64,000 bases of DNA from Actinomycetota bacterium (lineage in GTDB: Bacteria; Actinomycetota; Humimicrobiia; Humimicrobiales; Humimicrobiaceae). The translations under genes and the position numbers were made by a program. Location: assembly GCA_028698215.1 (NCBI GenBank), contig JAQVDY010000004.1, positions 481 through 64,480 of the forward strand, in the 5' to 3' direction. The notes under the pieces are model-generated. The model saw only the letters and a list, made by a program, of their open reading frames with translations, did not search any database and was not told the DNA's origin. Of the stretch, positions 6,277 through 56,576 are shown piece by piece (positions within the stretch are counted from its first letter, which is position 1; the number at the start of each line of letters is the position of its first letter).

Positions 6277-7519
6277 AACCCTGAATGCGGGTTTGCAGCT
6301 GCCCGGGGGAGTAATTATTCTGATCCACACAATCCCCATCAATTATTAACACCGGAAGCCCTTGGCTTCTAAGGTGGTCCTTAATTAACCTGGCTGCAGC
6401 GTTATTTTGGCGGCATCCCCAATGTGAAAACAGGATAGCCCCATCCATATGGTAATCGGCGGTCAGTTGGGAGATAACCTTCAATCTGTTGTTTATGCTT
6501 CCTCCCAAGTAATGGGAAAGCATTTTAACGGCCAGGCTTCTGAAAGGTGTAGCCGGATCCAGTTGGGGCCAGTATACATGGTTTATTTCCTCGAAAGCTA
6601 CCATGCAGTTACCCTGAGCTAAAAGGGAAAATATTTCATTTTTGTAATAGGGTTTTAAATGAAGCCAAAGCAGTCTCTTTTTAGGGGCAGGATCATCAGC
6701 TTTCCGGCCCAAAAGGCTTAATTCCTTATACATTTTTTTATATAAGGATACTGCTTGCGGTGTGCCGGCCATGCCGTGGAAGGGCAGTATGAAATTAAGC
6801 CCGTTATAGTCGGATGGATACACATTTAGGTTTTTTCTGACCTCATTTACTTTCAAGGCCCAGTATCTGAAGCGGTTGGAGTTTTCAATAGCTGTAGAAA
6901 GGGCATCAAGGTCTACCTTACGGCCCAGCTTGTTACTTATTTTATTACTTATTTGCTCTAACTGGGAGCTGACATAATCTACAGCTTCCGGATTGAAGTG
7001 GTAAGGGATGTCTATTAAATGATAATCTTTTTCCATCTTGAATTTATGGGCATAACCGTAGAAAGATTTCTGAGCTGCATCGCAGGCTAAATTGGTACAT
7101 ATGATAGCCTGCGGCCGGGGAAAAAGATTCAATTCCACCGCTCCCGAAGCGCTGCGGTGAAAAGTGCACAGGTCCGGGGAATACCAATGGCTGTTAGCTT
7201 TTTTTAAGGTATTGGGCGCAATTCCCATTCCTGCCGTAAAGCCGGCCAGGACCTCAGGAAGAAAGGGAACCAGTCCCAATCCATGTAATAATTCATAAGG
7301 CAGGAACAGTGAGCCATAGGCTACCGGAGCACCGTCTCTATAGGCTTTGGACATGGCTTCTATGCTGTAGATATTAAGGTATTTGTCTGATATTGATTTA
7401 AAGGTAGAACCAAACATCATAAGTACCGGCCTTTTGCCGGCAATGGATAAGAATCTTTTAATATAGTTCTGGTTAAGATTGTTTTTTATGGTAGTTTTAA
7501 GTTTATCCCTAACTCCCAT
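6251..7519 (-). CDS. 2-hydroxyacyl-CoA dehydratase family subunit (HgdA/FldB-like)
   Basis: LPYELL..PE, DLC, CTNLACD, HWGCRQ, IDGDC..QLQTRIQGFME C-terminus; adjacent to the partner subunit. Confidence 0.85.
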   Translation of the reverse strand: MGVRDKLKTTIKNNLNQNYIKRFLSIAGKRPVLMMFGSTFKSISDKYLNIYSIEAMSKAYRDGAPVAYGSLFLPYELLHGLGLVPFLPEVLAGFTAGMGIAPNTLKKANSHWYSPDLCTFHRSASGAVELNLFPRPQAIICTNLACDAAQKSFYGYAHKFKMEKDYHLIDIPYHFNPEAVDYVSSQLEQISNKISNKLGRKVDLDALSTAIENSNRFRYWALKVNEVRKNLNVYPSDYNGLNFILPFHGMAGTPQAVSLYKKMYKELSLLGRKADDPAPKKRLLWLHLKPYYKNEIFSLLAQGNCMVAFEEINHVYWPQLDPATPFRSLAVKMLSHYLGGSINNRLKVISQLTADYHMDGAILFSHWGCRQNNAAARLIKDHLRSQGLPVLIIDGDCVDQNNYSPGQLQTRIQGFMELLGSI

Positions 7520-8583
7520 TACAGCATCTCCAAAAAAGCTTCCAGCCGGGTCCTGATTTGCCCTTCAGGAAAATTATTAAACTCAAGTTCCAGGTTGAGT
7601 ATGGGAAGGCCCAGGTTTTGTTTGGCCAAAGGGTAAAAATAAAGGGTGTTGTCGCAGAATTTAAGGCTTACAAATATTATGGCCTGTACCCCAAAATCAT
7701 CTATAGCCTGTTTCAGGCTGTCAACCTTGGTTCCCAAATCAGCCATTCTCATGCATAATGGTTTTTGCAGGTATGCGCTGGCCAGGGCATAAAAAGGCTG
7801 TTGCCGGTAATCGGTTACTTCAAGGTCAAAGTAGCGGCTTAAGGTGCAAACATCATCATAAACCAGTTGGCAGTCCAGGTCTGAAAGGATATTCCACCAC
7901 TGGTCCTGGCTAATAAAATTACCTATCAGCATTATCCTGGGACCTGTACCTGGTTTTTTTACAGTGGCTGGCAGGCCTGCCAAGAAATCTTTCAGCCAAG
8001 GATTAAAAAATTGGGGATGTATGACCGCAGAACCCCTGACCAGCTGATAGTAATGGTTTAGGCTCAGCCGTTGTTCCCGGTAGGCCTGCCTCAGCTGGCG
8101 CAGACCTTTCTTTTTTTCATTTACCACCGCTATAGCTTCACTTAATCTTTTATCGTCTGCTTGGTTGCCAGATATATTTTCCAGCATGTTTAAGAATTTT
8201 TTTAACAGAGTTTGATAAAAAGATATAGAGTCAGCTCCGGCCAGCCGGGGGATATCCAAAAAAAAGGAAGGGAGCTGGGGAAGGTAGGCTTCAATTGCGT
8301 CATAAAGCCTTCTAGAACCGTCGCAGGAATTGGCAATTACTACCCCTTGCAGCCTGTCTGCTTCTAGCAGAAGCTGTGACAGGTTGGCCTTGATATAGGG
8401 ACAAAAGTTTATGGGAAGATAACTGTCTGCACGCCTGGAATCAGGCACCCCATATAAGCGGTAAGGGCTAAATCCTGCAGCTATGATTAATTCTTCCGGG
8501 GTGTAGGTACACATCCAGGCCCATAAATTACGGTCTTTATGGTAAAGATTTTCTGGTATAAGCTCCCGGTAATCATTGCTCAT
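7519..8583 (-). CDS. 2-hydroxyacyl-CoA dehydratase family subunit (HgdB/FldC/BcrC-like)
   Basis: CTYTPEELIIAAG, NFCPYIK, ANSCD, LKFCD, GQIRTRLEAFLE. Confidence 0.85.
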   Translation of the reverse strand: MSNDYRELIPENLYHKDRNLWAWMCTYTPEELIIAAGFSPYRLYGVPDSRRADSYLPINFCPYIKANLSQLLLEADRLQGVVIANSCDGSRRLYDAIEAYLPQLPSFFLDIPRLAGADSISFYQTLLKKFLNMLENISGNQADDKRLSEAIAVVNEKKKGLRQLRQAYREQRLSLNHYYQLVRGSAVIHPQFFNPWLKDFLAGLPATVKKPGTGPRIMLIGNFISQDQWWNILSDLDCQLVYDDVCTLSRYFDLEVTDYRQQPFYALASAYLQKPLCMRMADLGTKVDSLKQAIDDFGVQAIIFVSLKFCDNTLYFYPLAKQNLGLPILNLELEFNNFPEGQIRTRLEAFLEML

Positions 8584-9766: not shown

Positions 9767-10951
9767 GTGCCTATGTTTTATATGGCTTCTCCAGATGATA
9801 TTAAAAACGGTAAGGTAACTGACATTTATTTTAAGAGGTCCGAGACCATACTAAAATCACTAAACCGGGATGTAGAGGTGAAAGCAGAGGTTTTCTTAAA
9901 GAAATTACCCAACAATTATAGTTGGGGAGTGCTGTCAGGCATAGAGGAAAGCCTAAGGCTGCTGGCGGACAGCAAAAAAATTTCGGTAAGATGCATGCCG
10001 GAGGGTACCATATTTAAAGAATATGAGCCGGTAATGGTAATAGAAGGTAAATATTTAGACTTTGGCGTATTTGAAACAGCATTATTGGGTTTCTTATGCC
10101 AGAGCAGCGGTATTGCTACCAAGGCTGCCCGGTGTAAATTAGCGGCTCAGGGTAAACCTGTTTACAGTTTTGGGGCAAGAAGGGTGCATCCTGCCATTAC
10201 TCCCATGGTAGAAAGGTGTGCCTATATAGGAGGGGCAGAGGGGGTTTCCACTGTAATGGGAGCCCAGGTAACCGGTACTCAGCCGGTAGGAACCATGCCC
10301 CATGCCCTGATACTTATAGTGGGGGACACGGTAGAGGCTACCCGCGCTTTTGATGAAATTATCTCCCCCCAGGTAAACCGAATAGCATTGATTGATACTT
10401 TCCAGGATGAAAAGTTTGAAGCCATAAGGGTCTGCCAGGCTCTGGGAAACCATATTTACGCGCTAAGGCTGGATACCCCCGGCTCCAGGAAGGGTGACTT
10501 TTTAAAAATCCTGGAAGAAGTAAGGTGGGAACTGGACATAAGGGGGTTTGAGTCGGTAAAACTGGTAGTCAGCGGCGGCCTGGATGAAGCAGAAATTGCT
10601 CAGCTAGGTGCGGTAGCAGACTCCTTTGGGGTAGGAACTGCCATTTCTGGTGCCAGGGTACTGGATTTTTCTATGGATATAGTAGAGATAGAAGGCAAAC
10701 TGATAGCCAAAAGAGGGAAAATGTCTGGGGCCAAGAAAGTAATAAGGTGCCCCCAATGTTTTCAGGATAAGGTAGTGCTTGAACATACCGCTGCTCCAAA
10801 CATGAATTGTTCCCAATGTGGTTGCGCTTACCAGGAATTGTTTGTGGATGCTATTAAAGATGGTAAACTGGTAGCTGATTTACCCCCGGCATCCCAGATA
10901 AGGGAGAGGGTAATAAGACAGTTAAACGGAATGCAATGGCAAGGTGAATAG
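9767..10951 (+). CDS. pncB: Nicotinate phosphoribosyltransferase with C-terminal Cys knuckle
   Basis: TDIYF, FGARR, GTMPHAL (phospho-His), LIDTF, RLDTP, SGGL, FGVGT; C-terminal CPQC and CSQC. Confidence 0.92.
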   Translation: MPMFYMASPDDIKNGKVTDIYFKRSETILKSLNRDVEVKAEVFLKKLPNNYSWGVLSGIEESLRLLADSKKISVRCMPEGTIFKEYEPVMVIEGKYLDFGVFETALLGFLCQSSGIATKAARCKLAAQGKPVYSFGARRVHPAITPMVERCAYIGGAEGVSTVMGAQVTGTQPVGTMPHALILIVGDTVEATRAFDEIISPQVNRIALIDTFQDEKFEAIRVCQALGNHIYALRLDTPGSRKGDFLKILEEVRWELDIRGFESVKLVVSGGLDEAEIAQLGAVADSFGVGTAISGARVLDFSMDIVEIEGKLIAKRGKMSGAKKVIRCPQCFQDKVVLEHTAAPNMNCSQCGCAYQELFVDAIKDGKLVADLPPASQIRERVIRQLNGMQWQGE

Positions 10952-10953
10952 GT

Positions 10954-11625
10954 TTGGGAGTAAAGCTTTTCCTAATAAGGCACGGTCAGACATTATGGAA
11001 CCTGGAAGGAAAATACCAGGGTGACAGGGATATTGAACTAACTGGCCTGGGCATAAGGCAGGCAGGGCTGGCCCAGGAATACCTCCGAGATGTTGATTAC
11101 GCTAGTATTTACTCCAGTCCATTAAAAAGGGCTGTAGTTACCGCAGAAATCATTAATGCCGGCAGGGATAAAAAAATAATAATCCGCAATGACTTAAAGG
11201 AAATTGATTTCGGCCGGTGGGAAGGCCTGACCTTTGATCAGATAAATACTAGGTACCATAAGGATTACCAGGCCTGGCTGGAAGATCCCTATGCCAATGC
11301 CCCTACCGGGGGAGAAGATTTTACCAATCTTGTATCCAGGACATCCCAAGAAATAAACCGTATAGTGGCTGAAAACAAAGAGGGATCGGAAGTCATGATA
11401 TGTACCCATGGGGGAGTGATTGTAGCCCTGCTGGTATGGTGGCTTAAAGTACCACCAGAGAGGTGGAGATCACTTATCCAATACCAGGGGGCCATTAATA
11501 TAGTGGTCATTCACCAGGGTTTCCCCTATATATCCCAGATTAATTACAACGGACATTTGAATAAAACCTACTGCCATGAGCAAGACAAGGTAATAAATAT
11601 TTACAGCAAGTTAAAAGACGATTAG
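10954..11625 (+). CDS. Histidine phosphatase superfamily (CobC/PspA-like)
   Basis: RHGQT, SSPLKRA, EIDFGRWEG, THGG; TTG start. Confidence 0.88.
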   Translation: MGVKLFLIRHGQTLWNLEGKYQGDRDIELTGLGIRQAGLAQEYLRDVDYASIYSSPLKRAVVTAEIINAGRDKKIIIRNDLKEIDFGRWEGLTFDQINTRYHKDYQAWLEDPYANAPTGGEDFTNLVSRTSQEINRIVAENKEGSEVMICTHGGVIVALLVWWLKVPPERWRSLIQYQGAINIVVIHQGFPYISQINYNGHLNKTYCHEQDKVINIYSKLKDD

Positions 11626-21245: not shown

Positions 21246-22784
21246 ATGAATAATAGCAGCTTCAATGAAAAGTACCTGGTGGAAACAGAACAGCCTTTAA
21301 GCGAACCTCTGCAGCTAAAACTGGACCAGATAAAAAGCATGAAGCAAAAAGGGGAAAAGCTGTACTGCAATGATTTTAAGCCTGATATTGACCTGGAAAC
21401 CTTAAAGGAAAAATTTAAAGACTTACAGCAAGGTGATAAGACTCCCCGGGAGTTTAAGGTAGCCGGCAGGATTACTGGCTTCAGGAAACACGGGAAAGCT
21501 ACTTTTGCCGATCTGAAGGACCCTAAGGGCAAACTTCAACTTTACCTCAGTCAAAAAGTAGTGGGAGAAGAACAATACCATAAGTTTGGGCAGCTGGATA
21601 TAGGAGATTGGATAGGAGTAGAGGGACCCCTCTTTAAAACCCGGACCGGTGAGCTTTCTTTAAGTGTGCAGCAGTACAAATTGCTTTCCAAGTCCATTAG
21701 GATACTGCCGGAGAAGTGGCATGGCTTAAAGGATAAGGAGCTCAGGTATAGACAGAGGTATCTGGACTTCCTGGTTAATCCTCAGGTCAAGGAAGTATTT
21801 CTTAAAAGAATAAAAATAATAGAAAAGATAAGAGAATTTTTAAACCAAAAGGGTTTTTTGGAGGTGGAGACGCCAATGCTTCAAACTATTCCGGGCGGAG
21901 CCACAGCCAGGCCATTTGTTACTCACCATAATGCCTTGGATATAGATCTGTATCTAAGAATAGCGCCGGAACTTTATTTAAAACGCCTTATAGTGGGTGG
22001 GTTTGAAAAAGTTTATGAGATAAACAGAAATTTTAGAAATGAAGGAATATCCTATAAACATAATCCTGAATTTACCATGCTGGAATTTTACCAGATGTTT
22101 TCTAATTATCAGGAGCTGGCCCTGCTTACCCAGGATTTGGTAAAATATGCAGCTGGGCAGGCGCTGGGCAGCCTCAAAGTCAGCTACAGGGGCCAGGATA
22201 TTAACCTGGAAGGTGATTGGAAAAAAATAAGTATGGTAGAAGCCATAAAAGAAATAGGCGATATTGAGGTTAGCTTTGACCATAGTAAGGAACAGCTGAC
22301 AAAGGTAGCCCAGGGCTTAGGCTTGGAAATACCTGCCTTTTTTGGCAAGGGTAAAATCATAAACCAAATCTTTGAAGCAGTGGTGGAACCTAAGCTTATC
22401 CAACCTACCTTTATCATGGATTTTCCCAAAGAAATATCTCCTTTAGCCCAGCAGCATCCTGACAACCCGGAACTGGTAGAAAGATTTGAGCTGTTTATAG
22501 GGGGAGAAGAGATAGCCAATGCTTTTACGGAGTTAACTGATCCCGCTGAACAACTGTCCAGGTTTATGCTTCAGTCTAAAAGCAGTGATGAAGAAGAAAG
22601 GCTTAGCGGCAAAATTGACCAGGATTTCATTAAGGCGCTGGAATACGGAATGCCCCCTACCGGGGGAGAAGGCATAGGCATAGACCGGCTGGTTATGGTG
22701 CTAACCGGGTCAGAATCCATTAAGGACGTATTGCTGTTTCCATTGATGAAGCCCGAACAGGAACCTGGGCAAGTTAATATTTGA
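21246..22784 (+). CDS. lysS: Lysyl-tRNA synthetase (class II)
   Basis: RYRQRYLD, EVETPM, LRIAPEL, FRNEG, HNPEFTMLE, ERFELF, GMPPTGGEGIGIDRL. Confidence 0.98.
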   Translation: MNNSSFNEKYLVETEQPLSEPLQLKLDQIKSMKQKGEKLYCNDFKPDIDLETLKEKFKDLQQGDKTPREFKVAGRITGFRKHGKATFADLKDPKGKLQLYLSQKVVGEEQYHKFGQLDIGDWIGVEGPLFKTRTGELSLSVQQYKLLSKSIRILPEKWHGLKDKELRYRQRYLDFLVNPQVKEVFLKRIKIIEKIREFLNQKGFLEVETPMLQTIPGGATARPFVTHHNALDIDLYLRIAPELYLKRLIVGGFEKVYEINRNFRNEGISYKHNPEFTMLEFYQMFSNYQELALLTQDLVKYAAGQALGSLKVSYRGQDINLEGDWKKISMVEAIKEIGDIEVSFDHSKEQLTKVAQGLGLEIPAFFGKGKIINQIFEAVVEPKLIQPTFIMDFPKEISPLAQQHPDNPELVERFELFIGGEEIANAFTELTDPAEQLSRFMLQSKSSDEEERLSGKIDQDFIKALEYGMPPTGGEGIGIDRLVMVLTGSESIKDVLLFPLMKPEQEPGQVNI

Positions 22785-22793
22785 TTTTAAAAA

Positions 22794-22802
22794 TGTTATA
22801 AT
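22794..22802 (+). promoter_or_regulatory. Extended -10 promoter for mcsA-mcsB-clpC
   Basis: TGTTATAAT ending 19 nt before the mcsA ATG; no CtsR heptad repeat seen. Confidence 0.5.
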
Positions 22803-22820: not shown

Positions 22821-23363
22821 ATGTTATGCGATTTTTGTGGCAGCAATGATGCCAATGTCCATTTAATTAAAATCATTGATAATCAGGTAGAAAAAGTTAA
22901 TTTATGTGAAGATTGTGCCCGTCAGATTTCCATGGGATCAGACCAGGACATCCTTGAAGGTCTGGCTGATATTTTGATTAAATTATTTACGCATCGTAAT
23001 AAGGGGCAATCATCCAAGTCTCTGCCTGAGATAAAAGAAAGTGCCGAAGGCAATAAAAAGTGCGTTAATTGCGGTATAGATCTGAGCACTATTAAAAAAA
23101 CAGGTAAGGTGGGTTGCGCCCATTGCTATAAAGAATTTAGTGAAGTATTTTTACCGCTATTGGAAGCTATACATGGAAGTGTGGAATACAAGGGTAAAAT
23201 ACCTGTCAATTCTAGTTTTACCTATAAAGTGGAAAAGAAAATAAAGGATTTAAAAATCAGGCTTAATGAAGCGGTTATCATAGAGAATTTCGAAGAAGCG
23301 GCTAAATTAAGGGATATGATTAAAAGACTACAAAAGAGACTCTATGTAAAGAGTAAAAAATGA
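22821..23363 (+). CDS. mcsA: McsA (Zn-binding, UVR domain) ClpC/McsB activator
   Basis: Four CxxC motifs (CDFC, CEDC, CVNC, CAHC), HG...YKGKIP, C-terminal UVR-like ENFEEAAKLRD. Confidence 0.92.
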   Translation: MLCDFCGSNDANVHLIKIIDNQVEKVNLCEDCARQISMGSDQDILEGLADILIKLFTHRNKGQSSKSLPEIKESAEGNKKCVNCGIDLSTIKKTGKVGCAHCYKEFSEVFLPLLEAIHGSVEYKGKIPVNSSFTYKVEKKIKDLKIRLNEAVIIENFEEAAKLRDMIKRLQKRLYVKSKK

Positions 23364-24424
23364 AAGGCCTAACCACATACCTTAAAGCCAGGAAAAATGT
23401 GGCGGACAACGGTCCGATTTTGTATAGCAGGGTTAGTGTATCCAGAAACCTGGTTGGCTATAATTTTGGACAGACTATCAGTACACAGGATAAGAAAAAG
23501 ATACTATCACTGGTTAAAATAACCGCTTCCAATATAGATGAATTTTCCCATTTTGCTTTTTTTGACTTAAGAAGGCTTAACCAGCTGGAGAGAGAGCTAT
23601 TGGTAGAAAGCAATATAATCACCCGGACCATGGTTAGCAAAGTGACCGGAAAAGGGGTGTTTATAAAGTTAAAAGATAATGGAAGCAATACCATAAGCTC
23701 AGTGATGGTAAACGAAGATGACCACTTTAAGATTCAAGCCCTTACTCCCGGCCTGGGACTTTATGAAGGCCATAAGAATGTAATTGGCTTAGAAAAGCAG
23801 CTGGAAAGCAAGTTAAGCTTTTGTTTTGACCGTGATTTAGGATACCTTACTGCCTGTCCCACCATGGTGGGTTCAGGATTTGAAGCGTCAGTGCTGGTTC
23901 ACCTGCCCTCGCTAGTGATGAGCTTCAAGATTAACGACTTGATAAAAAGACTGAACCAGCTTAATTGTACCTTGCAGGGCTATCATTTAGAAGGGTCAGA
24001 GGTCTTAGGTAACCTGTTTCTGGTATCAAAGGAAAGTTCACTGAAAAACAATGATATCGACACTGTTGAAGAAATGGTAGCAATTTGTTTAAATATCATT
24101 GAAGAGGAAAACTTGCAGACGGAAGCTTTAATTAAGGATACGCCCATAAGCGTGGCGGATAATATATATAGGTCTTACGGGGTCCTTGAATATGCGCAGC
24201 TGCTATCATTTGATGAAGCTATTGAACTTCTGTCTATGGTGCTTTTAGGTAAAAAGTTGAAAATCTTGTATAATTTAAAGGAGTTTGATTTTTATCAGGT
24301 GATAAATATAATTGGTAATTCATATATAAGAAGTTATTTTGGAAATAAGGATGATACCGAAGATCAGGTTGATGCTATAAGGGCAGATATACTGAGAAAA
24401 GAAATTTTAAAAGGGAATGATTAA
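23360..24424 (+). CDS. mcsB: McsB-family ATP:guanido phosphotransferase, probably catalytically degenerate
   Basis: Fold motifs NEDDH, GYLTACPT, HLP, EGSE, YRSYG and position between mcsA and clpC; several ATP-binding Arg replaced (see findings). Confidence 0.88.
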   Translation: MKGLTTYLKARKNVADNGPILYSRVSVSRNLVGYNFGQTISTQDKKKILSLVKITASNIDEFSHFAFFDLRRLNQLERELLVESNIITRTMVSKVTGKGVFIKLKDNGSNTISSVMVNEDDHFKIQALTPGLGLYEGHKNVIGLEKQLESKLSFCFDRDLGYLTACPTMVGSGFEASVLVHLPSLVMSFKINDLIKRLNQLNCTLQGYHLEGSEVLGNLFLVSKESSLKNNDIDTVEEMVAICLNIIEEENLQTEALIKDTPISVADNIYRSYGVLEYAQLLSFDEAIELLSMVLLGKKLKILYNLKEFDFYQVINIIGNSYIRSYFGNKDDTEDQVDAIRADILRKEILKGND

Positions 24425-26891
24425 TATGTTTGAGAGATTTACAGAAAGGGCCAGGAAAGTTGTAGTCAGGGCTCAGGATGAAGCCAGGTTCCTAAAGCAG
24501 AATTATATAGGAACCGAACACCTTTTGCTGGGCCTTATAGATGAAAAGGAAGGTATTGCCTCTAAGGTTTTAGAAACCCTTAATGTTACTGCTACCGATA
24601 TAAGAAATGCCGTTAATGATTCGGTTACAGAAGGAAGCTCGGAATCTTATGAGCATATACCGTTTACTCCCAGAGCCAAGAAAGTGTTAGAGCTTTCCTT
24701 AAGAGAAGCATTGCAGATGGGGCATAACTATATTGGCACTGAACATATATTGCTGGGTTTGTTAAGGGAAGGGGAAGGAGTAGCGGCCAGGGTACTTAAC
24801 AGCCTGGGTATAACTTTAGAAACGGTTAAATCCAAGGTTAAGGAAGTACTAAACAAGTATCCCTTCTACTCCCAAAGCCAGGATAACCAGACTTCGGCCA
24901 GAAGCGGAAAGAAAGTTCTTAAGACTTTAAGCCAGTATGGCAAAGATTTAACCTTGATGGCCCAGGAAGGCAAGCTTGATCCGGTAATAGGGAGGAAAAA
25001 AGAAATAGAAAGGCTGATGCAGATACTTTCCAGAAGGACCAAGAATAATCCCATACTTATTGGAGAGTCTGGAGTGGGCAAAACTGCTATTGTGGAGGGT
25101 TTGGCCCAACAGATAGTATCACAATCAGTTCCTTCCAACCTGCAGGATAAAAAGATTTTTACCCTGGATTTGGGCTCATTGGTAGCAGGGTCCAGGTACA
25201 GGGGTGATTTTGAAGAAAGGCTTAAGAAAGTTCTGGCTGAAATAAAAGAAGATGGTGATGTAATATTATTTATCGATGAGGTCCACACCTTGGTAGGAGC
25301 GGGAGCAGCTGAGGGGGCTATTGATGCTGCCAGCATATTAAAACCCATGATGGCCAGGGGGGAAATACAAACCATTGGAGCTACCACTAATAGTGAATTC
25401 CGGAAATATGTAGAAAAAGATAAAGCTTTGGAAAGAAGGTTTCAACCCATATATGTGGATGAGCCCAGCGTGTTTGAAACCATTGAAATATTGAACGGCT
25501 TAAAGAAAAGATATGAGGCTTTCCATAATTTAACCATAACCGATAATGCCGTTTCCAGTGCAGCCAAGCTTTCCCAGCGCTATATTTCTGACCGGTTTTT
25601 GCCGGATAAGGCCATTGACTTAATAGACGAAGCTGCTTCCAGGGTCAGGATACGGGCATTGGTAACTCCTCCTGATCTTAAGGAGATAAACAAGGATATA
25701 AACAAAATTGTAAACGAAAAGGAAGATGCCATAAAGTCGCAGGATTTTGAACGGGCAGCGCAGCTGAGGGATAAGGAAAAGCAGCTTATTAAGGAAAAAA
25801 GGGAAATCGAAGAAAGAAACAAGCGCAGCGACCATACCGAGAAAATAGTGGTAGATGAAAATGAAATAGCTGAAGTACTTTCCAGCTGGACTGGGGTTCC
25901 GGTTTATAAATTAACCTCCACAGAGTCTAAAAAACTGATGAATATGGAAAAGGAGCTTCACCGCCGGGTAGTAGGCCAGGATGAAGCTATAAAGACAGTG
26001 TCAAAAGCTATCAGGCGTACCCGGTCAGGATTAAAAGATCCTAAAAGACCTATTGGTTCCTTTATGTTTTTAGGGCCTTCAGGAGTAGGCAAGACTGAGC
26101 TGGCCAAAACAATTGCTGAATTTTTATTTGATAGGGAAGAGGCACTGATACAAATTGATATGTCAGAATATATGGAAAAACATTCTGTATCCAAGCTGGT
26201 AGGCTCGCCTCCAGGATATGTGGGTTATGATGAGGGAGGACAGTTAACCGAAGCTATTAGGAGAAGGCCTTACAGCGTTATATTGCTGGATGAAGTGGAA
26301 AAAGCCCATCCAGATGTATTTAACATTCTGCTTCAAATATTTGAAGACGGACATCTTACAGACTCTCAGGGCAGAAGGGTTGATTTTAAAAATACGGTAA
26401 TCATCATGACTTCCAATTTGGGAGCAAGGGAGATACAGAAGAATACTCCTTTAGGGTTTAAGGCTGCTGATAACCGTGAGCTGTCCTACAATGAAATAAA
26501 AGATAAGGTGATGAGTGAGCTAAAACAGACTTTCAGGCCTGAGTTCTTAAACAGGGTAGATGAGGTAATAGTATTCCATAAACTGACTAAAGAGCAGATT
26601 TACAGCATCATAGACTTGATGATTTCCAGGCTGGCCCAGCAGCTGGAACTGCAGGGTATCATAATAGAAATTACTGAATCTGCCAAAGAGCTGCTACTGA
26701 ATAAAGGCTATGATGAAAAAATGGGAGCCAGGCCCATGAGAAGAAGTATACAGAACTTAATTGAAGATCCTATCTCGGAGAAAATCATAAATGGCGAAAT
26801 AAAGAGTGGCCAAGCGATAAGGGTCAGCTCCGAAGATGGCCAGATGATATTTGATATAAAAAAAGTAAACGGCAGTATGCTAAAAGTCTAA
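24417..26891 (+). CDS. clpC: ATP-dependent Clp protease ATPase subunit ClpC
   Basis: Two Clp-N repeats (FTER/GTEH, FTPR/GTEH), Walker A GESGVGKT and GPSGVGKT, UVR coiled coil, TPLGF ClpP-docking loop. Confidence 0.98.
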   Translation: MINMFERFTERARKVVVRAQDEARFLKQNYIGTEHLLLGLIDEKEGIASKVLETLNVTATDIRNAVNDSVTEGSSESYEHIPFTPRAKKVLELSLREALQMGHNYIGTEHILLGLLREGEGVAARVLNSLGITLETVKSKVKEVLNKYPFYSQSQDNQTSARSGKKVLKTLSQYGKDLTLMAQEGKLDPVIGRKKEIERLMQILSRRTKNNPILIGESGVGKTAIVEGLAQQIVSQSVPSNLQDKKIFTLDLGSLVAGSRYRGDFEERLKKVLAEIKEDGDVILFIDEVHTLVGAGAAEGAIDAASILKPMMARGEIQTIGATTNSEFRKYVEKDKALERRFQPIYVDEPSVFETIEILNGLKKRYEAFHNLTITDNAVSSAAKLSQRYISDRFLPDKAIDLIDEAASRVRIRALVTPPDLKEINKDINKIVNEKEDAIKSQDFERAAQLRDKEKQLIKEKREIEERNKRSDHTEKIVVDENEIAEVLSSWTGVPVYKLTSTESKKLMNMEKELHRRVVGQDEAIKTVSKAIRRTRSGLKDPKRPIGSFMFLGPSGVGKTELAKTIAEFLFDREEALIQIDMSEYMEKHSVSKLVGSPPGYVGYDEGGQLTEAIRRRPYSVILLDEVEKAHPDVFNILLQIFEDGHLTDSQGRRVDFKNTVIIMTSNLGAREIQKNTPLGFKAADNRELSYNEIKDKVMSELKQTFRPEFLNRVDEVIVFHKLTKEQIYSIIDLMISRLAQQLELQGIIIEITESAKELLLNKGYDEKMGARPMRRSIQNLIEDPISEKIINGEIKSGQAIRVSSEDGQMIFDIKKVNGSMLKV

Positions 26892-32855: not shown

Positions 32856-33370
32856 ATGAACTGGTAATAGTAGATGGCTACAATTTCATATTTCACTATG
32901 CAGCTGAAACAAAAATGGACAATGACAGCCTAACCTACTACCGGGATCGCCTAATCAATGATCTTGCCGGGTATAAAGCCAGCAAAAATAAAGATGTGGT
33001 CCTGGTTTTTGATGCCCGCCACAGCAGCAATGCTACCAGGACTACTCATATGATTAATCAAGTGAGGATTATTTATTCCAAAAAAGGGGAGACTGCAGAC
33101 ACAGTTATAGAAGAAATGGTAAACCAGGATCAAAGCCACAATAAAATTTTTGTGGTTACTTCAGATTATGTACAGCAAAAAGTGGTGTTCAGGAAAAATG
33201 TATACAGGCTGTCTTCCCGGGAATTCGGGTTGCAGTTAAATGAGCTTAAAACACAATTAAGGCAGCAAGTAAACCAGCTAAACAAGCAATCTAATACTTC
33301 TTTTTATAATCTAGGGGCCAGGCTAAATAAAAAGGACTGGGATGATTTCACTAAAATCAGAAATAATTAG
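32852..33370 (+). CDS. yacP: NYN-domain ribosome-dependent endoribonuclease (YacP/Rae1 family)
   Basis: VDGYN, VFDA, ETADTVIE, VVTSD, SSREF; follows rlmB. Confidence 0.88.
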   Translation: MNELVIVDGYNFIFHYAAETKMDNDSLTYYRDRLINDLAGYKASKNKDVVLVFDARHSSNATRTTHMINQVRIIYSKKGETADTVIEEMVNQDQSHNKIFVVTSDYVQQKVVFRKNVYRLSSREFGLQLNELKTQLRQQVNQLNKQSNTSFYNLGARLNKKDWDDFTKIRNN

Positions 33371-34157
33371 CCTGATAGTTTTAATTATAGTATTAATATC
33401 GGCAGTGGGTTGCGGATTATTTTATTATAAGCCCGGAATTGAAGATACAAGCGAAAGGGCCAATACAGGATTTATAGTAGCGGAAGTGATTGATGGAGAT
33501 ACTTTGGTTATAGAAGGCGGAGAGAGAATCAGGCTAATTGGCATAAATACCCCGGAAGAAGGCCAGTATTTTTATAGGGAAGCCAAACAAGCCCTGGAAG
33601 CTATGGTAGAAGGGAAAAATATAAAGCTGGAATCAGATATTTCTGACCTGGACCAATACGGCCGGCTGTTGAGATATGTATATAAGGACAATTTGTTTGT
33701 AAATCTGGAAATGGTAAAACGGGGTTTTGCCCATTCTTATAGTTATCCGCCGGATCTAAAACATCAGGATCAATTGCTTCAGGCCCAGGAATACGCCAGG
33801 CAAAACAGTTTGGGTTTGTGGGAACAAAGCAGCTCCCCCCTGGAGGTTAAAATCCAATATGATGCCCCTGGTGATGACAGCCAGAATATCAATCAGGAAT
33901 ATGTAATAATTACTAATACTTCTTCTTTTTCTATGGATGTAACAGGGTTTACTATCAAAGACCGGGGAACCAACATTTTTAAGTTCCCCAGGTTTGAACT
34001 ACAAAGCGGCCAAACCATTTTTGTACATAGTGGTTACGGCAAAAATGAAGACGGCCACTTTTACTGGAATAGCGATACCCCTGTATGGAATAACAGTGGC
34101 GACACCTTGTTTATAAGGGATAGGGAAGGACTTCTGGTGGCCATTTTTGATTATTAA
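33342..34157 (+). CDS. Secreted or lipid-anchored thermonuclease (SNase) fused to a lamin-tail domain
   Basis: Hydrophobic N-terminus ending AVGC; VIDGDT, RLIGINTPE, DQYGRLLRYV; LTD-like EYVIITN...VWNNSGDT. Confidence 0.85.
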   Translation: MISLKSEIISLIVLIIVLISAVGCGLFYYKPGIEDTSERANTGFIVAEVIDGDTLVIEGGERIRLIGINTPEEGQYFYREAKQALEAMVEGKNIKLESDISDLDQYGRLLRYVYKDNLFVNLEMVKRGFAHSYSYPPDLKHQDQLLQAQEYARQNSLGLWEQSSSPLEVKIQYDAPGDDSQNINQEYVIITNTSSFSMDVTGFTIKDRGTNIFKFPRFELQSGQTIFVHSGYGKNEDGHFYWNSDTPVWNNSGDTLFIRDREGLLVAIFDY

Positions 34158-38878: not shown

Positions 38879-40027
38879 ATGGATTATTCTTTTACTGAGG
38901 AACAGCAGATGGTCGTAGATATATGCCGGCAAATTACTGAGCAGAAAATAAAGCCGGTAAGGGCAGAGCTGGATGAGAAACAGGTTTTTCCTTCAGAACT
39001 GTTAGCGGAAATAGGCAAAGCGGATTTATTCAGGTTATTCATACCTGAGCAGTATGACGGGATGGGGACCGGCATATTTGAAGTATGCCTGGCCACCGAA
39101 GAGCTAAGCAGGGGAGATTTAAGTGTTGCTACCTCCTATGCCGCCAGCGGGTTGGGATTTTTACCCATCCTTATATCAGGCAGCGAAGAACAAAAGAAAA
39201 AATATTTGCCTGCACTGGCTTCGGGCCAAAAACTGGCAGCTTTCGGGCTTACCGAGCCTGAAGCAGGAAGTGATGCCAGTGGTATTAAAACCAAGGCAAA
39301 ATTGGAGGGCAACTGCTATATACTAGACGGAACCAAGCAATGGATTACCAATGGGGGAGAAGCTGACATCTATACCATATTTGCCATGACTAATCCGTCT
39401 AAGGGAAGCAGGGGAGCCTCTGCTTTTATAGTAGAAAAAGGCATGGAAGGTTTTGAGTTTGGAAAAAAAGAAAATAAGATGGGAATAAGGGCTTCTGCTA
39501 CCAGGGAATTAATCTTTAACCAATGCAAAATTCCCAGGGAGAACCTGATAGGTAAAGAAGGTATGGGCTTTCTAATAGCCATGAAAACCCTGGATAGGTC
39601 ACGTCCTGCAGTAGGGGCGCAGGGGGTTGGACTGGCCCAGGGTGCCCTGGAAGAAGCCTTGGCTTATGCCAAGGTAAGGAAACAGTTTTCGGTACCTATT
39701 TCTACCTTCCAGGCCATCCGCCATATGCTGGCTGATATGGCAACCCAGGTAGAGGCTGCCCGGAGCCTGGTTTATATGGCAGCCCGGAGGGTGGACCAGC
39801 AGGAGAAAGATATATCCAGGGTATCCGCCATGGCCAAACTTTTTGCTTCAGATATGGCTATGAAAGTAACTACAGACGCAGTTCAGGTATTGGGAGGTTA
39901 TGGCTATATGAAAGAGTATCCGGTGGAAAAGATGATGCGAGATGCCAAGATACTGCAGATATATGAGGGAACCAATCAAATACAGAGGGATGTAATTGCC
40001 CTGGACTTAATTAAAAAGGGATTTTAA
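38879..40027 (+). CDS. Acyl-CoA dehydrogenase (Bcd/CarC-like)
   Basis: FGLTEPEAGSDA, KQWITNG, ENKMGIRAS, RKQF, QVLGGYGY, IYEGTNQIQR (catalytic Glu). Confidence 0.95.
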   Translation: MDYSFTEEQQMVVDICRQITEQKIKPVRAELDEKQVFPSELLAEIGKADLFRLFIPEQYDGMGTGIFEVCLATEELSRGDLSVATSYAASGLGFLPILISGSEEQKKKYLPALASGQKLAAFGLTEPEAGSDASGIKTKAKLEGNCYILDGTKQWITNGGEADIYTIFAMTNPSKGSRGASAFIVEKGMEGFEFGKKENKMGIRASATRELIFNQCKIPRENLIGKEGMGFLIAMKTLDRSRPAVGAQGVGLAQGALEEALAYAKVRKQFSVPISTFQAIRHMLADMATQVEAARSLVYMAARRVDQQEKDISRVSAMAKLFASDMAMKVTTDAVQVLGGYGYMKEYPVEKMMRDAKILQIYEGTNQIQRDVIALDLIKKGF

Positions 40028-40034
40028 CCAAGGG

Positions 40035-40847
40035 GTGGTAAATATTAAGGTTTTAGTTTGCATTAAGCAGGTGCCTGGCACCACAGATATAAAAATTGAT
40101 TCTCAAACCAATACCCTGATCAGGGAGGGCATTGAAAACATTATTAATCCTTATGATGAGTATGCCCTGGAGGAAGGGGTTAGCTTAAATGAAAGAATGG
40201 AAGCCATAAGCCAAACCATAGCATTGACCATGGGACCTTTACAGGCAATGCAGATATTAAAAGATGCCCTGTCGGTAGGGGCAGATGGGGCGGTACTGGT
40301 TTCAGACCGGGATTTTGCCGGTGCGGATACCTGGGCTACTGCCCAGACCCTGGCTGCAGCTTCTAGTAAAATTGGACAGGTGGGTCTTACCATATTCGGC
40401 AAGCAAACACTGGATGGGGATACCGGCCAGGTAGGCCCGGAATATGCCCAAATATTAAACATACCTTTTGTAGGTTATGTTAGCCGGATTATCAGGATAG
40501 ATAAAAATAGTTTACAGGTGAAAAGGCTGGCCGAAGACCGTTATGAAACCATAGAAGTAAGTATGCCTGCAGCTATTTCGGTTTTAAAGGAAATAAACGA
40601 GCCAAGGGTGCCTTCTCTGAGGGGAAAGCTGAAAGCAGCCAAAGCCCAGATACCGGTATGGTGCCGGAATGATTTGGGCCTTAATGCCGATCAGGTGGGG
40701 CTGCAGGGTTCATTTACCCAGGTAGTTAAAGTATTCATACCTACCATAAAACATGAAGTTATGATGCTGGAAGGTTCTGTGGAGGAGCAGGTAGAAAAAC
40801 TTTTTAAAAAGCTAAAGCAACTAAACAGGGTTCAGGAGGATATTTAA
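40035..40847 (+). CDS. etfB: Electron transfer flavoprotein beta subunit
   Basis: CIKQVP, NPYDEYALE, FAGADT, GKQTLDGDTGQVGP, NEPR. Confidence 0.96.
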   Translation: MVNIKVLVCIKQVPGTTDIKIDSQTNTLIREGIENIINPYDEYALEEGVSLNERMEAISQTIALTMGPLQAMQILKDALSVGADGAVLVSDRDFAGADTWATAQTLAAASSKIGQVGLTIFGKQTLDGDTGQVGPEYAQILNIPFVGYVSRIIRIDKNSLQVKRLAEDRYETIEVSMPAAISVLKEINEPRVPSLRGKLKAAKAQIPVWCRNDLGLNADQVGLQGSFTQVVKVFIPTIKHEVMMLEGSVEEQVEKLFKKLKQLNRVQEDI

Positions 40848-42037
40848 TGGGGATAAAAGTTTTAGAAGATAAATGTACCGGCTGCGGCTTATGCCTTAAA
40901 TCATGCCTTTACCAGGCCATAGATATAAAGAATAAAGTAGCGGTAATTAATGATAGCTGCATATTATGTGGAGCTTGTGTCCCGGCCTGTAAATTTCAAG
41001 CAATCCAGCTAACTACAAAAGAATCCATCAAAGACTTCCCCGATTATAGGGGGTTTATGGTATTTTTAGAAACCAAGGATGGGCGGATCAAGGATTCAGG
41101 CCTGGAACTATTAAGTAAAACCCGCCAATTGAATAAAATTTTAAATACAAATATTTGTGGAGTATGCATGGGAGCCAGCCAGGATCAACTCCATTTGCCT
41201 TTCAAATTTGGGGCAGATAAAGTTTTTGCTTTTAATAGTGACGGATGGGAGCAAGGCATGGATGATACCTACAGCCAGGCTCTTTTCCAAATCATAGGAG
41301 AGGTAAAACCGGAAATATTTTTGGCAGCAGCCACCTCGTTTGGAAGGACATTGACCCCTAAACTGGCTGCTATGCTTAAGACTGGATTGACTGCTGATTG
41401 TACCGAGCTGGAAGTTGATAAGGATACTAGGCTTTTAAAACAGACCAGGCCCACTTTTGGGGGCAATGTTTTGGCCACTATTGTCTGCAAGAACTCCCGG
41501 CCCCAGATGGCTACGGTACGGCCTCATGTTTTTAAAAAGGTTGAACTTGGGGCAAAGCCGGAACAGATAGAGATGGTGCCCTTAAAAAAGGCAGGATTGG
41601 TAAACCGGCAAAAACTGCTAGACGTTGACCATAACCTGGACCAGGATATAAACTTGGCTGACTATGAAGTAATTGTTGCCGGGGGCAGGGGGATGGGCGG
41701 CAGTCAAAATTTTTCCTTGTTAAGAGAACTGGCAGACTTATTGAAAGGCACGGTAGCCGCTTCCAGGGCAGCAGTAGACGCTGGCTGGATTGCTTATCCC
41801 CATCAAGTAGGCCAAACCGGAAAAACAGTTAACCCCAAACTATATATTGCCTGTGGAATATCCGGAGCTATCCAGCACCTGGCAGGAATGCAGACTTCAG
41901 ATATAATTATAGCCATAAACAAAGATAGTTCGGCTCCTATATTTAAAGTTGCAAATTATGGAATTGTGGGGGATATTTTGGAAATAGTACCAAAGTTGAT
42001 TTCAAGGATAAAACAAGGTCTATCCTTAGTAGATTAG
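40847..42037 (+). CDS. etfA: Electron transfer flavoprotein alpha subunit with N-terminal 2[4Fe-4S] ferredoxin domain
   Basis: CTGCGLCLKSC and CILCGACVPAC; TADCT, TRPTFGG, QVGQTGK, GISGAIQHLAG. Confidence 0.96.
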   Translation: MGIKVLEDKCTGCGLCLKSCLYQAIDIKNKVAVINDSCILCGACVPACKFQAIQLTTKESIKDFPDYRGFMVFLETKDGRIKDSGLELLSKTRQLNKILNTNICGVCMGASQDQLHLPFKFGADKVFAFNSDGWEQGMDDTYSQALFQIIGEVKPEIFLAAATSFGRTLTPKLAAMLKTGLTADCTELEVDKDTRLLKQTRPTFGGNVLATIVCKNSRPQMATVRPHVFKKVELGAKPEQIEMVPLKKAGLVNRQKLLDVDHNLDQDINLADYEVIVAGGRGMGGSQNFSLLRELADLLKGTVAASRAAVDAGWIAYPHQVGQTGKTVNPKLYIACGISGAIQHLAGMQTSDIIIAINKDSSAPIFKVANYGIVGDILEIVPKLISRIKQGLSLVD

Positions 42038-50993: not shown

Positions 50994-50995
50994 TA

Positions 50996-52191: not shown

Positions 52192-52278
52192 GGGCGAATG
52201 GCGGAATTGGCAGACGCGCTAGGTTCAGGGTCTAGTGCTCGCAAGAGCATGGGGGTTCAAGTCCCCCTTCGCCCACCA
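52192..52278 (+). tRNA. tRNA-Leu(CAG), CCA encoded
   Basis: Acceptor GGGCGAA/TTCGCCC+ACCA; anticodon stem CTAGG/TCTAG with loop TT-CAG-GG; long variable arm; T-loop TTCAAGT. Confidence 0.97.
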
Positions 52279-56396: not shown

Positions 56397-56576
56397 ATGA
56401 ATAAACGGGATGCAGGATTCATAATAGGCGGTGCTATAATTGGTGCAATTCTTGGTTTTATAATTCAAAAAAAAGGAATCACCAAGGTTATTGAACTGTT
56501 AAAAGGTAAAAAAACCATAAGTCCTAAAATTGTCGATTATTGGAAGCTATTAAGCCAAAAACTCGGCTGGGATTAA
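56397..56576 (+). CDS. 59-aa YtxH-like membrane protein (absent from the ORF track)
   Basis: Hand-translated MNKRDAGFIIGGAIIGAILGFIIQKKG...; Gly-rich TM; GGGGA SD-like site; follows the DUF948-like gene. Confidence 0.6.
   Translation: MNKRDAGFIIGGAIIGAILGFIIQKKGITKVIELLKGKKTISPKIVDYWKLLSQKLGWD

Follow-up and report, generated by a model that had tools for sequence, protein, structure and literature searches.

A Full-Length McsB Homolog Whose Active Site Is Degenerate, Probably a Selected Pseudo-Enzyme, in the mcsA-mcsB-clpC Operon of Uncultured Actinomycetota

Introduction

Why would a bacterium keep, between mcsA and clpC, a full-length mcsB gene whose product has lost most of the residues that bind phosphate in a protein-arginine kinase? 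To our knowledge, no bacterial protein-arginine kinase other than McsB is known, and pArg serves bacteria as the counterpart of a ubiquitin-like degradation tag. Mycobacterial ClpC1 is an essential drug target. In Actinomycetota, including mycobacteria, pArg exists and is bound by ClpC1, and no kinase has been identified (PMC9604228, PMC13345244). The gene analysed here lies in a 64-kb stretch of DNA from an uncultured member of this phylum (hereafter, the window), and probably encodes a selected pseudo-enzyme, in which phosphotransfer would have been lost and another role, played with McsA and the ClpC1-type unfoldase, would have been retained or acquired.

Gene, Fold and Distribution

The gene (23360..24424, plus strand) encodes a protein of 354 aa that PF00217, an alignment with 6fh1_A and an AF2 model identify as a McsB homolog of full length; its active site is degenerate. 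The match to PF00217 (E=3.5e-43) covers profile positions 6–201 of 203, while the alignment with 6fh1_A (E=2.7e-52) covers residues 18–348 at ~30% identity, the C-terminal end being alignable with 6fh1 as far as residue 352. The AF2 model, built from a 120-sequence alignment (pLDDT 91.4, pTM 0.89), superseded an earlier one from a 15-sequence alignment (pLDDT 66.7). The phosphagen-kinase-like domain (residues 1–231; 23360..24052, plus strand) holds every catalytic-site substitution in the site table, and the McsB_C dimerisation domain (residues 232–354; 24053..24421, plus strand) is delimited by PF27454 and the 6fh1 alignment. The N-terminal phosphagen-kinase domain is absent, the protein beginning about 20 residues before the SRxS motif. 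PF27454 is assigned by precomputed annotation to P0001, which is identical to the window protein, and to all relatives P0001–P0015; in the model, the C-terminal domain is helical and its pLDDT is >90, and within the clade it is the most conserved part of the protein. The window protein misses all the NCBIfam McsB equivalog cutoffs, with 264.9 bits vs 385 (NF002194) and 242.3 vs 500 (NF053707), a shortfall that is in part lineage divergence, since the actinobacterial relatives with a canonical site also score below the NF002194 cutoff (305–346 bits, vs 263–279 bits for the degenerate forms). There is no second McsB within the 64-kb window.

The degenerate pattern is common to a rare clade (clade A) of eight protein clusters, all of them from uncultured Actinomycetota that stand near Ca. 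Humimicrobiia. All eight members are full length, without frameshifts or stops, and all lie in the same locus order, greA-lysS-mcsA-mcsB-clpC-disA-ispDF. This locus is identical in L081–L085 and orthologous to the loci of clade B (L167) and clade C (L166). The actinobacterial McsBs, degenerate and canonical-site, form one monophyletic group (100% bootstrap), in which clade C is the sister of the window's clade (83% bootstrap). A single-sequence scan of metagenomes yielded no confirmed further relative of the clade, and an alignment-based scan had canonical McsBs among the matches listed. No clade-A genome was among the matches listed in a scan of GTDB genomes, the best being L001–L003 at 36–41% identity. 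An assembly or alignment artefact was rejected as the source of the pattern, which occurs in eight independent assemblies with motif blocks that align gap-free.

The Degenerate Catalytic Site

Sites are numbered after Limulus arginine kinase (AK), whose sequence was checked against 1RL9, and the GsMcsB and BsMcsB reference sequences are 100% identical to 6fh1_A and 8wtb_A. An earlier note, made from the letters of this DNA, had reported six altered motifs, and alignment to canonical McsB proves all of them real: SRxRLARN is replaced by SRVSVSRN, EKHLIS by ESNIIT, NEEDHxRIQ by NEDDHFKIQ, CPTNVGTGxRAS by CPTMVGSGFEAS, VRG by LQG, and QISNQ by LVSKE. In AK numbering, the changes are R126S, E225D, R229K, N274M, R280E, R309Q, N327K and H185N, with R124, R129, C271 and E314 retained. 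The same note had counted four of the five phosphate-binding arginines as replaced, one of them by Glu, and mapping the alignment onto AK returns the same count. The phosphoryl- and guanidinium-binding roles of these residues have been described (PMC11075012).

Eight of the positions concerned (R126, E225, R229, C271, N274, R280, R309 and E314) are invariant in 104–105 of 105 canonical McsBs from many phyla, and read S, D, K, C, M, E, Q and E in the window protein. Six of the eight canonical catalytic residues are thus altered here, and seven in P0003–P0007. Canonical McsB has 48 columns with a conservation of at least 99%; the window protein differs at 13 of them, whereas equally divergent canonical-site actinobacterial relatives differ at only 1–5.

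The phosphate-binding cluster (AK R126, R229, R280 and R309, plus N274) corresponds to S26, K124, E175, Q206 and M169, spread over several segments of the plus strand. The S26 codon (23435..23437), where the phosphate-binding R126 is lost, specifies Ser in all eight clade members, as AGT or AGC. Further along, D120 to K124 of NEDDHFK (23717..23731) carry the changes of AK E225 to D and of AK R229 to K, the K124 codon being AAG or AAA across members. The CPTMVGSGFE loop (23855..23884) keeps C166 (AK C271), loses AK N274 (M169), and contains S172 (T277S) and E175, the Glu that takes the place of AK R280; across the clade, both GAA and GAG occur as the codon of E175, and four different codons are in use for S172. 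At 23975..23992, Q206 marks the loss of AK R309, H209 is a Y312H change, L210 replaces a conserved Gly, and E211 preserves AK E314. Finally, K224 and E225 (24029..24034; AK N327K and Q328E) are a basic and an acidic gain, respectively. Three conserved glycines of the active-site loop are lost.

The residues that position the guanidinium group (AK E225, C271 and E314) are D120, C166 and E211 in the window protein and range over E/D/Q, C/S and E/D/Q/H across the clade, with Ser at the AK C271 position in P0003–P0007 and D, Q or H at the E211 equivalent in other members. As far as an alignment can tell, these changes look conservative and the positions do not appear to be fixed. The net charge of the pocket, counted over the listed site residues, turns from positive to negative. 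K224 is the only clade-specific basic gain near the site, beside the two acidic gains within it, E175 and E225, and the check for compensating basic residues that the earlier note had proposed found no adequate set, although some positive charge could come from K124 and K224.

These data bear on whether the protein is still a phosphotransferase, in which R24, R29, K124 and K224 substitute for the missing arginines, or which uses a different phosphoryl donor or acceptor. The window protein does keep the NE(D/E)DH motif together with R124, R129, C166 and E211, the loop in which AK R330 lies has in K224 a basic residue that is conserved and specific to the clade, and selection on the remodelled residues (see Selection on the Degenerate Form) would also fit an altered chemistry. 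A further argument comes from single Arg mutants of creatine kinase, which retain 2–30% activity, so that a residual or altered chemistry could persist in the window protein as well. In favour of the pseudo-enzyme, on the other hand, single substitutions in human creatine kinase B lower kcat/Km to 2–12% of the wild type (PMC10557616); the mutated residues are, by motif correspondence, presumably those equivalent to AK R126, R229, R280 and C271. In the present case four arginines and N274 are lost jointly, with Glu in the place of one arginine, and together with the gain of Q328E this renders the phosphate cavity acidic; the Cys presumed to be catalytic and the two Glu are not constant within the clade (C/S; E/D/Q; E/D/Q/H), which is unexpected in a catalysing enzyme; and the three loop glycines are missing. 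A surviving phosphotransferase is, on this evidence, quite unlikely.

The pArg receptor site has been described in BsMcsB, where it comprises S285, R337, D338 and R341 (PMC8370763). It reads F285, V337, D338 and R341 in the window protein and is, hence, incomplete. Nevertheless, of 105 canonical McsBs just 56 have Arg as R337 and just 50 have Ser as S285, so that this receptor does not define the family; as a lineage-specific feature even among canonical McsBs, it was rejected as a discriminator.

The mcsA-mcsB-clpC Operon

The upstream neighbour, mcsA (22821..23363, plus strand; 180 aa), encodes two zinc-binding modules followed by a UVR-type coiled coil, as judged from 8wtb_B and PF02151. 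McsA aligns with 8wtb_B (BsMcsA) over residues 1–174 (E=2.2e-20), all eight Cys included; it contains the UVR family PF02151 and scores 119 bits with the NCBIfam McsA model, below the cutoff of 210. Downstream, clpC (24426..26891, plus strand; 821 aa) encodes a ClpC1-type protein with, according to Pfam, an N-domain, two AAA+ modules and a UVR-type M-domain, whose NTD finds its best match in the Mtb ClpC1 NTD (2e-55, vs 1e-43 for B. subtilis).

The picture of the surroundings drawn in the earlier note holds in each of its parts. The reading frame is full length (354 aa) and coupled to both neighbours, with a 4-nt overlap with mcsA (ATGA) and a stop codon 1 nt before the clpC ATG at 24426. McsA carries the four CxxC motifs (C3/C6/C29/C32 and C81/C84/C99/C102), and the pArg-pocket motifs of ClpC are kept, with FTERA, GTEH twice and FTPRAKK aligned. 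The host belongs to Actinomycetota and its ClpC is of the ClpC1 type, in agreement with the NTD comparison. The absence of ctsR was likewise corroborated, a tblastn probe being negative in the window and related loci and positive in five Firmicutes control loci; the gene upstream of mcsA, where ctsR was not found, is lysS. Work by Trentini in 2016 reportedly forms a second basis for reading the ClpC motifs as pArg pockets. The assignment of GTEH/FTxRA/FTPRA used here was taken from PMC9604228.

Two promoter-like sites were found on the plus strand. The first precedes mcsA (22774..22802; TTAATA, a 17-nt spacer and TATAAT, with an upstream TG as in an extended -10 element), extends over the stop codon of lysS and the spacer between lysS and mcsA, and has 10/12 consensus matches in addition to the TG. 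None of the five clade-A loci departs from its sequence, TTAATATTT...TGnTATAAT, although nearby synonymous sites are saturated. The second, found in a scan with 10/12 consensus matches, lies about 115 nt upstream of clpC, in the 3' end of mcsB (24285..24312; TTGATT, 16 nt, TATAAT). Both of its hexamers are invariant in the five loci, and all five codons over them are codon-invariant, vs 12.8% of the invariant-aa codons operon-wide. Moreover, a Shine-Dalgarno-like AAGGGA (24411..24416, plus strand), recognised by sequence and five-locus conservation, stands 9 nt upstream of the clpC ATG, and the AAGGGAATGAT block is conserved as DNA in the five loci, even where a 1-nt indel shifts the mcsB frame across it. 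The order mcsA-mcsB-clpC is kept in all relatives, and mcsB adjoins clpC in 71 of 71 loci examined.

The internal promoter-like site suggests that clpC may be transcribed independently, and in this respect it would suit a cleft that serves as a sensor or site for a small cationic or guanidino ligand, unrelated to ClpC delivery, with a merely historical location next to clpC. The change of the pocket from basic to acidic and the conservative retention of the guanidinium-contacting positions would also be in keeping with such a sensor. On the other hand, mcsA, mcsB and clpC are tightly coupled (4-nt overlap, 1-nt gap) across synonymous-saturated lineages, and McsA, for which we know of no role other than that of McsB partner, has been co-retained under selection. 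A ligand sensor detached from ClpC is quite unlikely as well.

Selection on the Degenerate Form

The dN/dS of the degenerate mcsB is about 0.07–0.14, although dS is saturated (>1.4 in all pairs, from 1.4 to above 3, with many values undefined), which makes these ratios rough, and relative dN, site conservation and codon turnover were therefore used as well. The ratio for mcsA vs L081 is 0.064, and that for clpC is 0.018. In the closest pair, the window vs L081, dN is 0.122 for mcsB, 0.121 for lysS, 0.149 for ispD and 0.205 for ispF. Among the seven core members, 19 of the 26 changed columns are invariant, vs 82 of the 269 other columns (30%; Fisher p=3.7e-5), and the replacement residues are the same across members even though different synonymous codons encode them. 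Judging from these patterns, the replacement residues themselves appear to be selected.

A decaying remnant under relaxed selection, heading for loss as in other Actinomycetota, is very improbable in this light. The deeper splits of the clade would fit decay, since McsB identity falls there to 48–63% at a ClpC identity of 87–90% (canonical mean 72%, minimum 60%); the divergence rate of the kinase domain in clade A is 1.33 times that of the C-terminal domain, compared with 1.03 for canonical pairs; and McsB is missing from crown Actinomycetota (PMC9604228). Nonetheless, decay is largely refuted by the intact frames of all eight members, by the low dN/dS and a dN equal to that of lysS in the closest pair, by new residues kept through codon turnover, by the conserved promoter and coupling, and by the confident fold prediction. 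Relaxed selection or loss in relatives, for which the earlier note had asked to look, was thus found in neither form, with the same locus kept in 8/8 members. That note had also taken the protein for a possible intermediate toward the McsB-less ClpC1 of other Actinomycetota. The locus does support a presence of mcsA-mcsB next to lysS and clpC1 in early Actinomycetota; a transitional state is not upheld, given the replacements kept through synonymous turnover. Rather, these comparisons indicate that the degenerate mcsB is an old, stable and positively maintained state. That the frame is kept mainly for DNA signals (an internal clpC promoter, a ribosome-binding site and translational coupling), the protein being irrelevant, is barely tenable, since the nucleotide-conserved TTGATT-16-TATAAT and AAGGGA that favour it take up ~140 nt at the 3' end and cannot explain amino-acid selection over 354 codons or the conservation of the remodelled pocket, which lies >250 nt upstream of them.

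Proposed Function of the Degenerate McsB

The features by which pseudo-enzymes are recognised in sequences, namely missing catalytic residues, purifying selection and a full-length frame, here in eight members, were all found. As the selected pseudo-enzyme favoured here, the protein would have a canonical protein-arginine kinase, encoded at this same locus, as its ancestor and would be unable to bind or transfer the ATP gamma-phosphate, and the purifying selection on it would be due to another task, performed with McsA and the adjacent ClpC. The remodelled cleft would not bind nucleotide and may still hold a cationic ligand, e.g., an unmodified arginine side chain. The complex of McsA with the degenerate McsB may then regulate ClpC without catalysis or serve it as a substrate receptor, and we infer, as the earlier note did, a role as ClpC adaptor or McsA scaffold. 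Arginine phosphorylation, if present in these organisms, would be carried out by the same kinase as in other Actinomycetota. Sequence-defined pseudokinases have sometimes proved active via migrated residues. Moreover, the adaptor function of B. subtilis McsB depends on its kinase activity, so that a kinase-dead adaptor would need a different way of engaging ClpC.

A more specific version, conceivable but on balance doubtful, is that the protein has turned from a writer of pArg into a reader of unmodified arginine or of a cationic degron, the cleft, now acidic, handing substrates to ClpC1 together with McsA. This change could have been made possible by another arginine kinase that took over pArg marking early in Actinomycetota.

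Implications

In uncultured early-branching Actinomycetota, mcsA-mcsB still occupies the lysS-clpC1 locus, with a kinase site that is intact in some lineages and dismantled but maintained in others. No earlier account of a pseudo-McsB that occurs naturally and is conserved came up in text searches of the literature. Such a protein would give a handle on what the McsA/McsB module does apart from catalysis, and the contrast between canonical and degenerate forms could bring the missing arginine kinase of Actinobacteria within reach of comparative genomics. If the protein has indeed become such a reader after another kinase took over, the lineages with canonical, degenerate and absent McsB would constitute a phylogenetic profile for that kinase, whose gene should occur in lineages with a dead McsB or none and be missing from those with an intact one.

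Comparison with Known Systems

Among the closest systems for comparison are the actinobacterial McsBs with a canonical site, found in Ca. Humimicrobiia-like MAGs (P0010–P0013, P0121, P0124, L002 and L167). They share with the window the greA-lysS-mcsA-mcsB-clpC-disA-ispDF locus, the group-specific C306 and S330, and the VD.IRA C-terminal motif but, unlike the window protein, have all eight catalytic residues. The degenerate state is shared with, or recurs in, sister lineages (P0014/15 of clade C, L001, L003, P0122 and P0123). L003 resembles the window protein in R126S, R229K and R280E, and differs in keeping R309 and in C271N; P0014/15 have R229K, R280K and R309S, and clade C differs from the window in C271N. 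Outside Actinomycetota, P0184, P0230 and P0239 are degenerate McsBs that have likewise lost several of these catalytic residues, P0230 being a 523-aa McsA-McsB fusion.

The McsB of Geobacillus stearothermophilus and Bacillus subtilis (PDB 6FH1, 6TV6 and 8WTB) has the same two-domain architecture as the window protein, in which a phosphagen-kinase-like domain that lacks the N-terminal helical domain is joined to one for dimerisation at the C-terminal end. The mcsA-mcsB-clpC order and a McsA with both Zn modules are also shared with these organisms, whereas the window has lysS in place of ctsR upstream. MecA-type ClpC adaptors offer a functional analogy only, in that non-catalytic control of ClpC is the role proposed for the degenerate McsB, which has no sequence or fold relationship with MecA. 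Arginine and creatine kinases (1BG0, 1M15 and 1RL9) have in common with it the catalytic-domain fold and the motif framework (E about 5e-17). The window protein differs from them in lacking, as all McsBs do, the N-terminal substrate-specificity domain and, unlike any active phosphagen kinase, it is devoid of the phosphate-binding arginines.

Identity of the McsB homolog and its operon

The ORF at 23360-24424 (+) encodes a 354-aa protein that is clearly a McsB homolog by its database matches: it matches Pfam PF00217 (E=3.5e-43), its best solved-structure match is G. stearothermophilus McsB (6FH1, E=2.7e-52, residues 18-348), and a McsB_C domain is on record for the identical database protein, P0001. 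It falls under every NCBIfam McsB equivalog cutoff (e.g., 265 bits vs 385). AlphaFold2 run with a 120-sequence alignment (pLDDT 91.4, pTM 0.89) gave both domains with the full set of secondary-structure elements; the run from a 15-sequence alignment reached a pLDDT of 66.7. The coupling to both neighbours that the earlier note described is present, with a 4-nt ATGA overlap with the upstream mcsA-like gene (22821-23363) and an end 1 nt before the clpC ATG at 24426. The partner genes also bear out what had been claimed for them: McsA aligns with BsMcsA over its full length (2.2e-20) and retains all eight zinc-ligand Cys, and ClpC keeps both GTEH repeats, FTERA and FTPRAKK in its pockets. With moderate confidence, we favour the reading that the window McsB has been kept by selection as a pseudo-kinase, which would play a non-catalytic role with McsA and ClpC1 as partners.

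Active site

In arginine kinase, the phosphoryl group is held by Arg126, Arg229, Arg280 (printed once as 279), Arg309, Arg330 and Asn274, and the guanidinium by Glu225, Glu314 and Cys271 (PMC11075012). Residues were mapped to the Limulus arginine kinase (AK) sequence, checked against 1RL9; the reference GsMcsB is 100% identical to 6fh1_A 26-352 and BsMcsB to 8wtb_A 23-349. All six motif changes previously claimed were found in the sequence and alignments. In a MAFFT alignment of 105 canonical McsBs from many phyla, the positions that match R124, R126, R129, E225, R229, C271, N274, R280, R309 and E314 are invariant in 104-105 sequences, and the window protein reads R, S, R, D, K, C, M, E, Q and E, respectively, with H185N and N327K as further substitutions. 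Positions that we take, by motif correspondence, to be AK R126, R229, R280 and C271 have been mutated in human creatine kinase B. Such single substitutions leave 2-12% of the wild-type kcat/Km (PMC10557616). Moreover, the protein deviates at 13 of the 48 columns whose conservation in canonical McsB is 99% or higher, vs 1-5 in equally divergent canonical-site relatives.

Compensating basic residues were also looked for. The only clade-specific conserved Lys/Arg near the site that is absent from canonical McsB is K224 (AK N327), beside two clade-specific acidic gains, E175 (R280E) and E225 (Q328E), and the net charge over the listed site residues shifts from about +2 to about -1 or -2. The retained R124, R129, C271 and E314 would fit an enzyme that still works through an altered site, but that reading seems unlikely beside this shift and the lost phosphoryl-binding arginines. 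The guanidinium-contacting positions vary conservatively (E/D/Q, C/S and E/D/Q/H), as expected if nucleotide and phosphoryl binding were lost while the cleft perhaps kept its hold on a cationic side chain.

Locus and distribution

In every member examined, McsB lies in a greA-lysS-mcsA-mcsB-clpC-disA-(...)-ispD-ispF locus: in the window's own degenerate clade A (L081-L085), in the canonical-site clade B (L167), in a second degenerate clade C (L166) and in L001 and L003, from GTDB Actinomycetota MAGs. Since degenerate and canonical members occupy the same locus, the degenerate gene is an in-place descendant of canonical McsB and not a paralog. A ligand sensor repurposed without relation to ClpC would suit a cleft that binds cations, and it is similarly improbable beside this persistent adjacency to clpC. 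The 64-kb window, a stretch of one contig, holds no second mcsB, LMW-PTP (YwlE-type) phosphatase, hrcA or clpP; a canonical McsB paralog may still lie elsewhere in the genome. The reported absence of ctsR holds in the window and in L081-L083, L085, L001, L003, L166 and L167, with a probe that recovers ctsR in five Firmicutes loci. The protein encoded at 33342-34157 joins a staphylococcal-nuclease domain to a lamin-tail domain and is conserved, position included, in L081 and L083.

In a search of 5.8 billion proteins, close clusters numbered only eight (P0001-P0008, at 48-100% identity), and every one came from Actinomycetota MAGs. R126S, N327K and the loss of R229, R280 and R309 are common to all eight; K229, E280 and Q309 occur in seven, and in P0003-P0007 C271 (to Ser) and E314 are lost as well. 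Clustering at 50% reduces the entire clade to a single representative out of at least 1394 McsB-like clusters. In a tree built by neighbour-joining only, in which clade A has few members, actinobacterial McsBs fall into a single group (100% bootstrap) with canonical-site P0010-P0013 at its base and the second degenerate clade (P0014/15) as sister of the window's clade (83% bootstrap). Among the MAG loci, L001 (McsB at 10001-10996) has C271S, R280K and R309N, L003 (10001-11056) has R126S, E224W, R229K, C271N and R280E, and L002 has a canonical site.

Outside the actinobacterial group, strong degeneration is rare, only P0184, P0230 and P0239 of ~145 representative clusters deviating at three or more of eleven sites. 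P0184 carries R229K, C271S and E314D, P0239 deviates at 7/11 sites, and P0230 is a natural McsA-McsB fusion of 523 aa with R124G, R229L, N274K, R280Q and R309H. Given P0184 and P0239, pseudo-McsBs may have more than one origin. Text searches of the available literature turned up no account of a degenerate McsB.

Selection on the degenerate protein

The dS values (1.4 to above 3) are saturated in every pair, while the proteins are still 48-81% identical; dN/dS, computed by NG86 on this saturated dS, is 0.07-0.14. The closest pair has a dN of 0.122 for mcsB, beside 0.121 for lysS, 0.134 for mcsA, 0.149 for ispD, 0.205 for ispF and 0.047 for clpC. Inside sub-clades, McsB divergence relative to ClpC is within the canonical range; at deeper splits it is faster, with 48-63% identity at a ClpC identity of 87-90%, where canonical McsBs average 72% and do not fall below 60%. 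Divergence of the kinase domain is 1.33x that of the C-terminal domain (canonical pairs, 1.03 +/- 0.25; clade B, 0.98), and constraint on the kinase domain is therefore somewhat relaxed, though far from lost. Canonical McsB has 82 columns with a conservation of 90% or more. All seven core members depart from it at 26 of these, and 19 of the 26 are invariant within the clade, vs 82/269 other columns (Fisher p=3.7e-5). The same new residues are encoded by differing synonymous codons among members (S26 AGT/AGC, K124 AAG/AAA, E175 GAA/GAG, S172 four codons, Q206 CAG/CAA, K224 AAG/AAA; numbering of the McsB protein). Judged from these patterns, the replacement residues are themselves under constraint, and a decaying remnant, to which the faster deep divergence could be ascribed, is very improbable.

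Expression signals

A promoter-like TTAATA-17-TATAAT with an upstream TG (22774-22802) spans the lysS stop and the lysS-mcsA spacer and is invariant in all five clade-A loci. A second, TTGATT-16-TATAAT, lies within the 3' end of mcsB (24285-24312) and is nucleotide-invariant in the five loci, third codon positions included; all five codons covering its hexamers are codon-invariant, vs 12.8% of invariant-amino-acid codons operon-wide. This embedded promoter-like site suggests that clpC can be transcribed independently of mcsA-mcsB. The predicted clpC ribosome-binding site AAGGGA (24411-24416) is likewise embedded in the mcsB 3' end and nucleotide-conserved in the five loci, third codon positions included, and the AAGGGAATGAT block ahead of the clpC ATG is kept even where a 1-nt indel shifts the overlying mcsB frame. 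Retention solely for such DNA-level reasons is the least credible reading, the protein residues being constrained across synonymous codons.

A terminator-like GC hairpin in the 5' part of mcsB (23403-23416), CGGACAACGGTCCG followed by a T-rich tail, is probably due to chance, since such sites are fewer in the region than the shuffle expectation. Directly upstream of greA, 20674-20702 matches the sigma-70 consensus at 12/12 positions (TTGACA-17-TATAAT).

Other genes in the window

At 49188-51718, the - strand encodes a PknB-like, PASTA-domain Ser/Thr kinase of 601 aa and, after it, a PP2C phosphatase, an ordinary actinobacterial pair with no relation to arginine phosphorylation. Genes for 2-hydroxyacyl-CoA dehydratase with its activator and for acyl-CoA dehydrogenase with ETF, whose alpha subunit bears a ferredoxin domain (2934-3716, 6251-8583 and 38879-42037), suggest an anaerobic, fermentative lifestyle, and OtsA/OtsB (4067-6276) and TreT (56573-57820) indicate trehalose synthesis. 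Also encoded are an 868-aa protein with DHH/DHHA1, two CBS domains and a poly(A) polymerase/CCA-adding head domain (363-2969) and, downstream of a tRNA (52192-52275), a 671-aa MASE6-PAS-GGDEF-HD (HD_5) signalling protein (53406-55421).

Comparison with other Actinomycetota

Mycobacteria and other Actinomycetota are not known to have an arginine kinase, although pArg occurs in the phylum and the ClpC1 pockets are conserved there (PMC9604228; PMC13345244). The locus indicates that early Actinomycetota had mcsA-mcsB adjoining clpC1, and this part of the earlier proposal of an intermediate toward loss stands; against the remainder, the degenerate state is old, stable and maintained. Among named ClpCs, the nearest share about 80% identity and belong to Ca. 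Hydromicrobium and Ca. Humimicrobiaceae, of class Ca. Humimicrobiia in the phylum Actinomycetota. The ClpC N-domain is closer to M. tuberculosis ClpC1 (2e-55) than to B. subtilis ClpC (1e-43), and the order lysS ... clpC1 ... disA ... ispD-ispF-cysS presumably resembles the M. tuberculosis clpC1 region.
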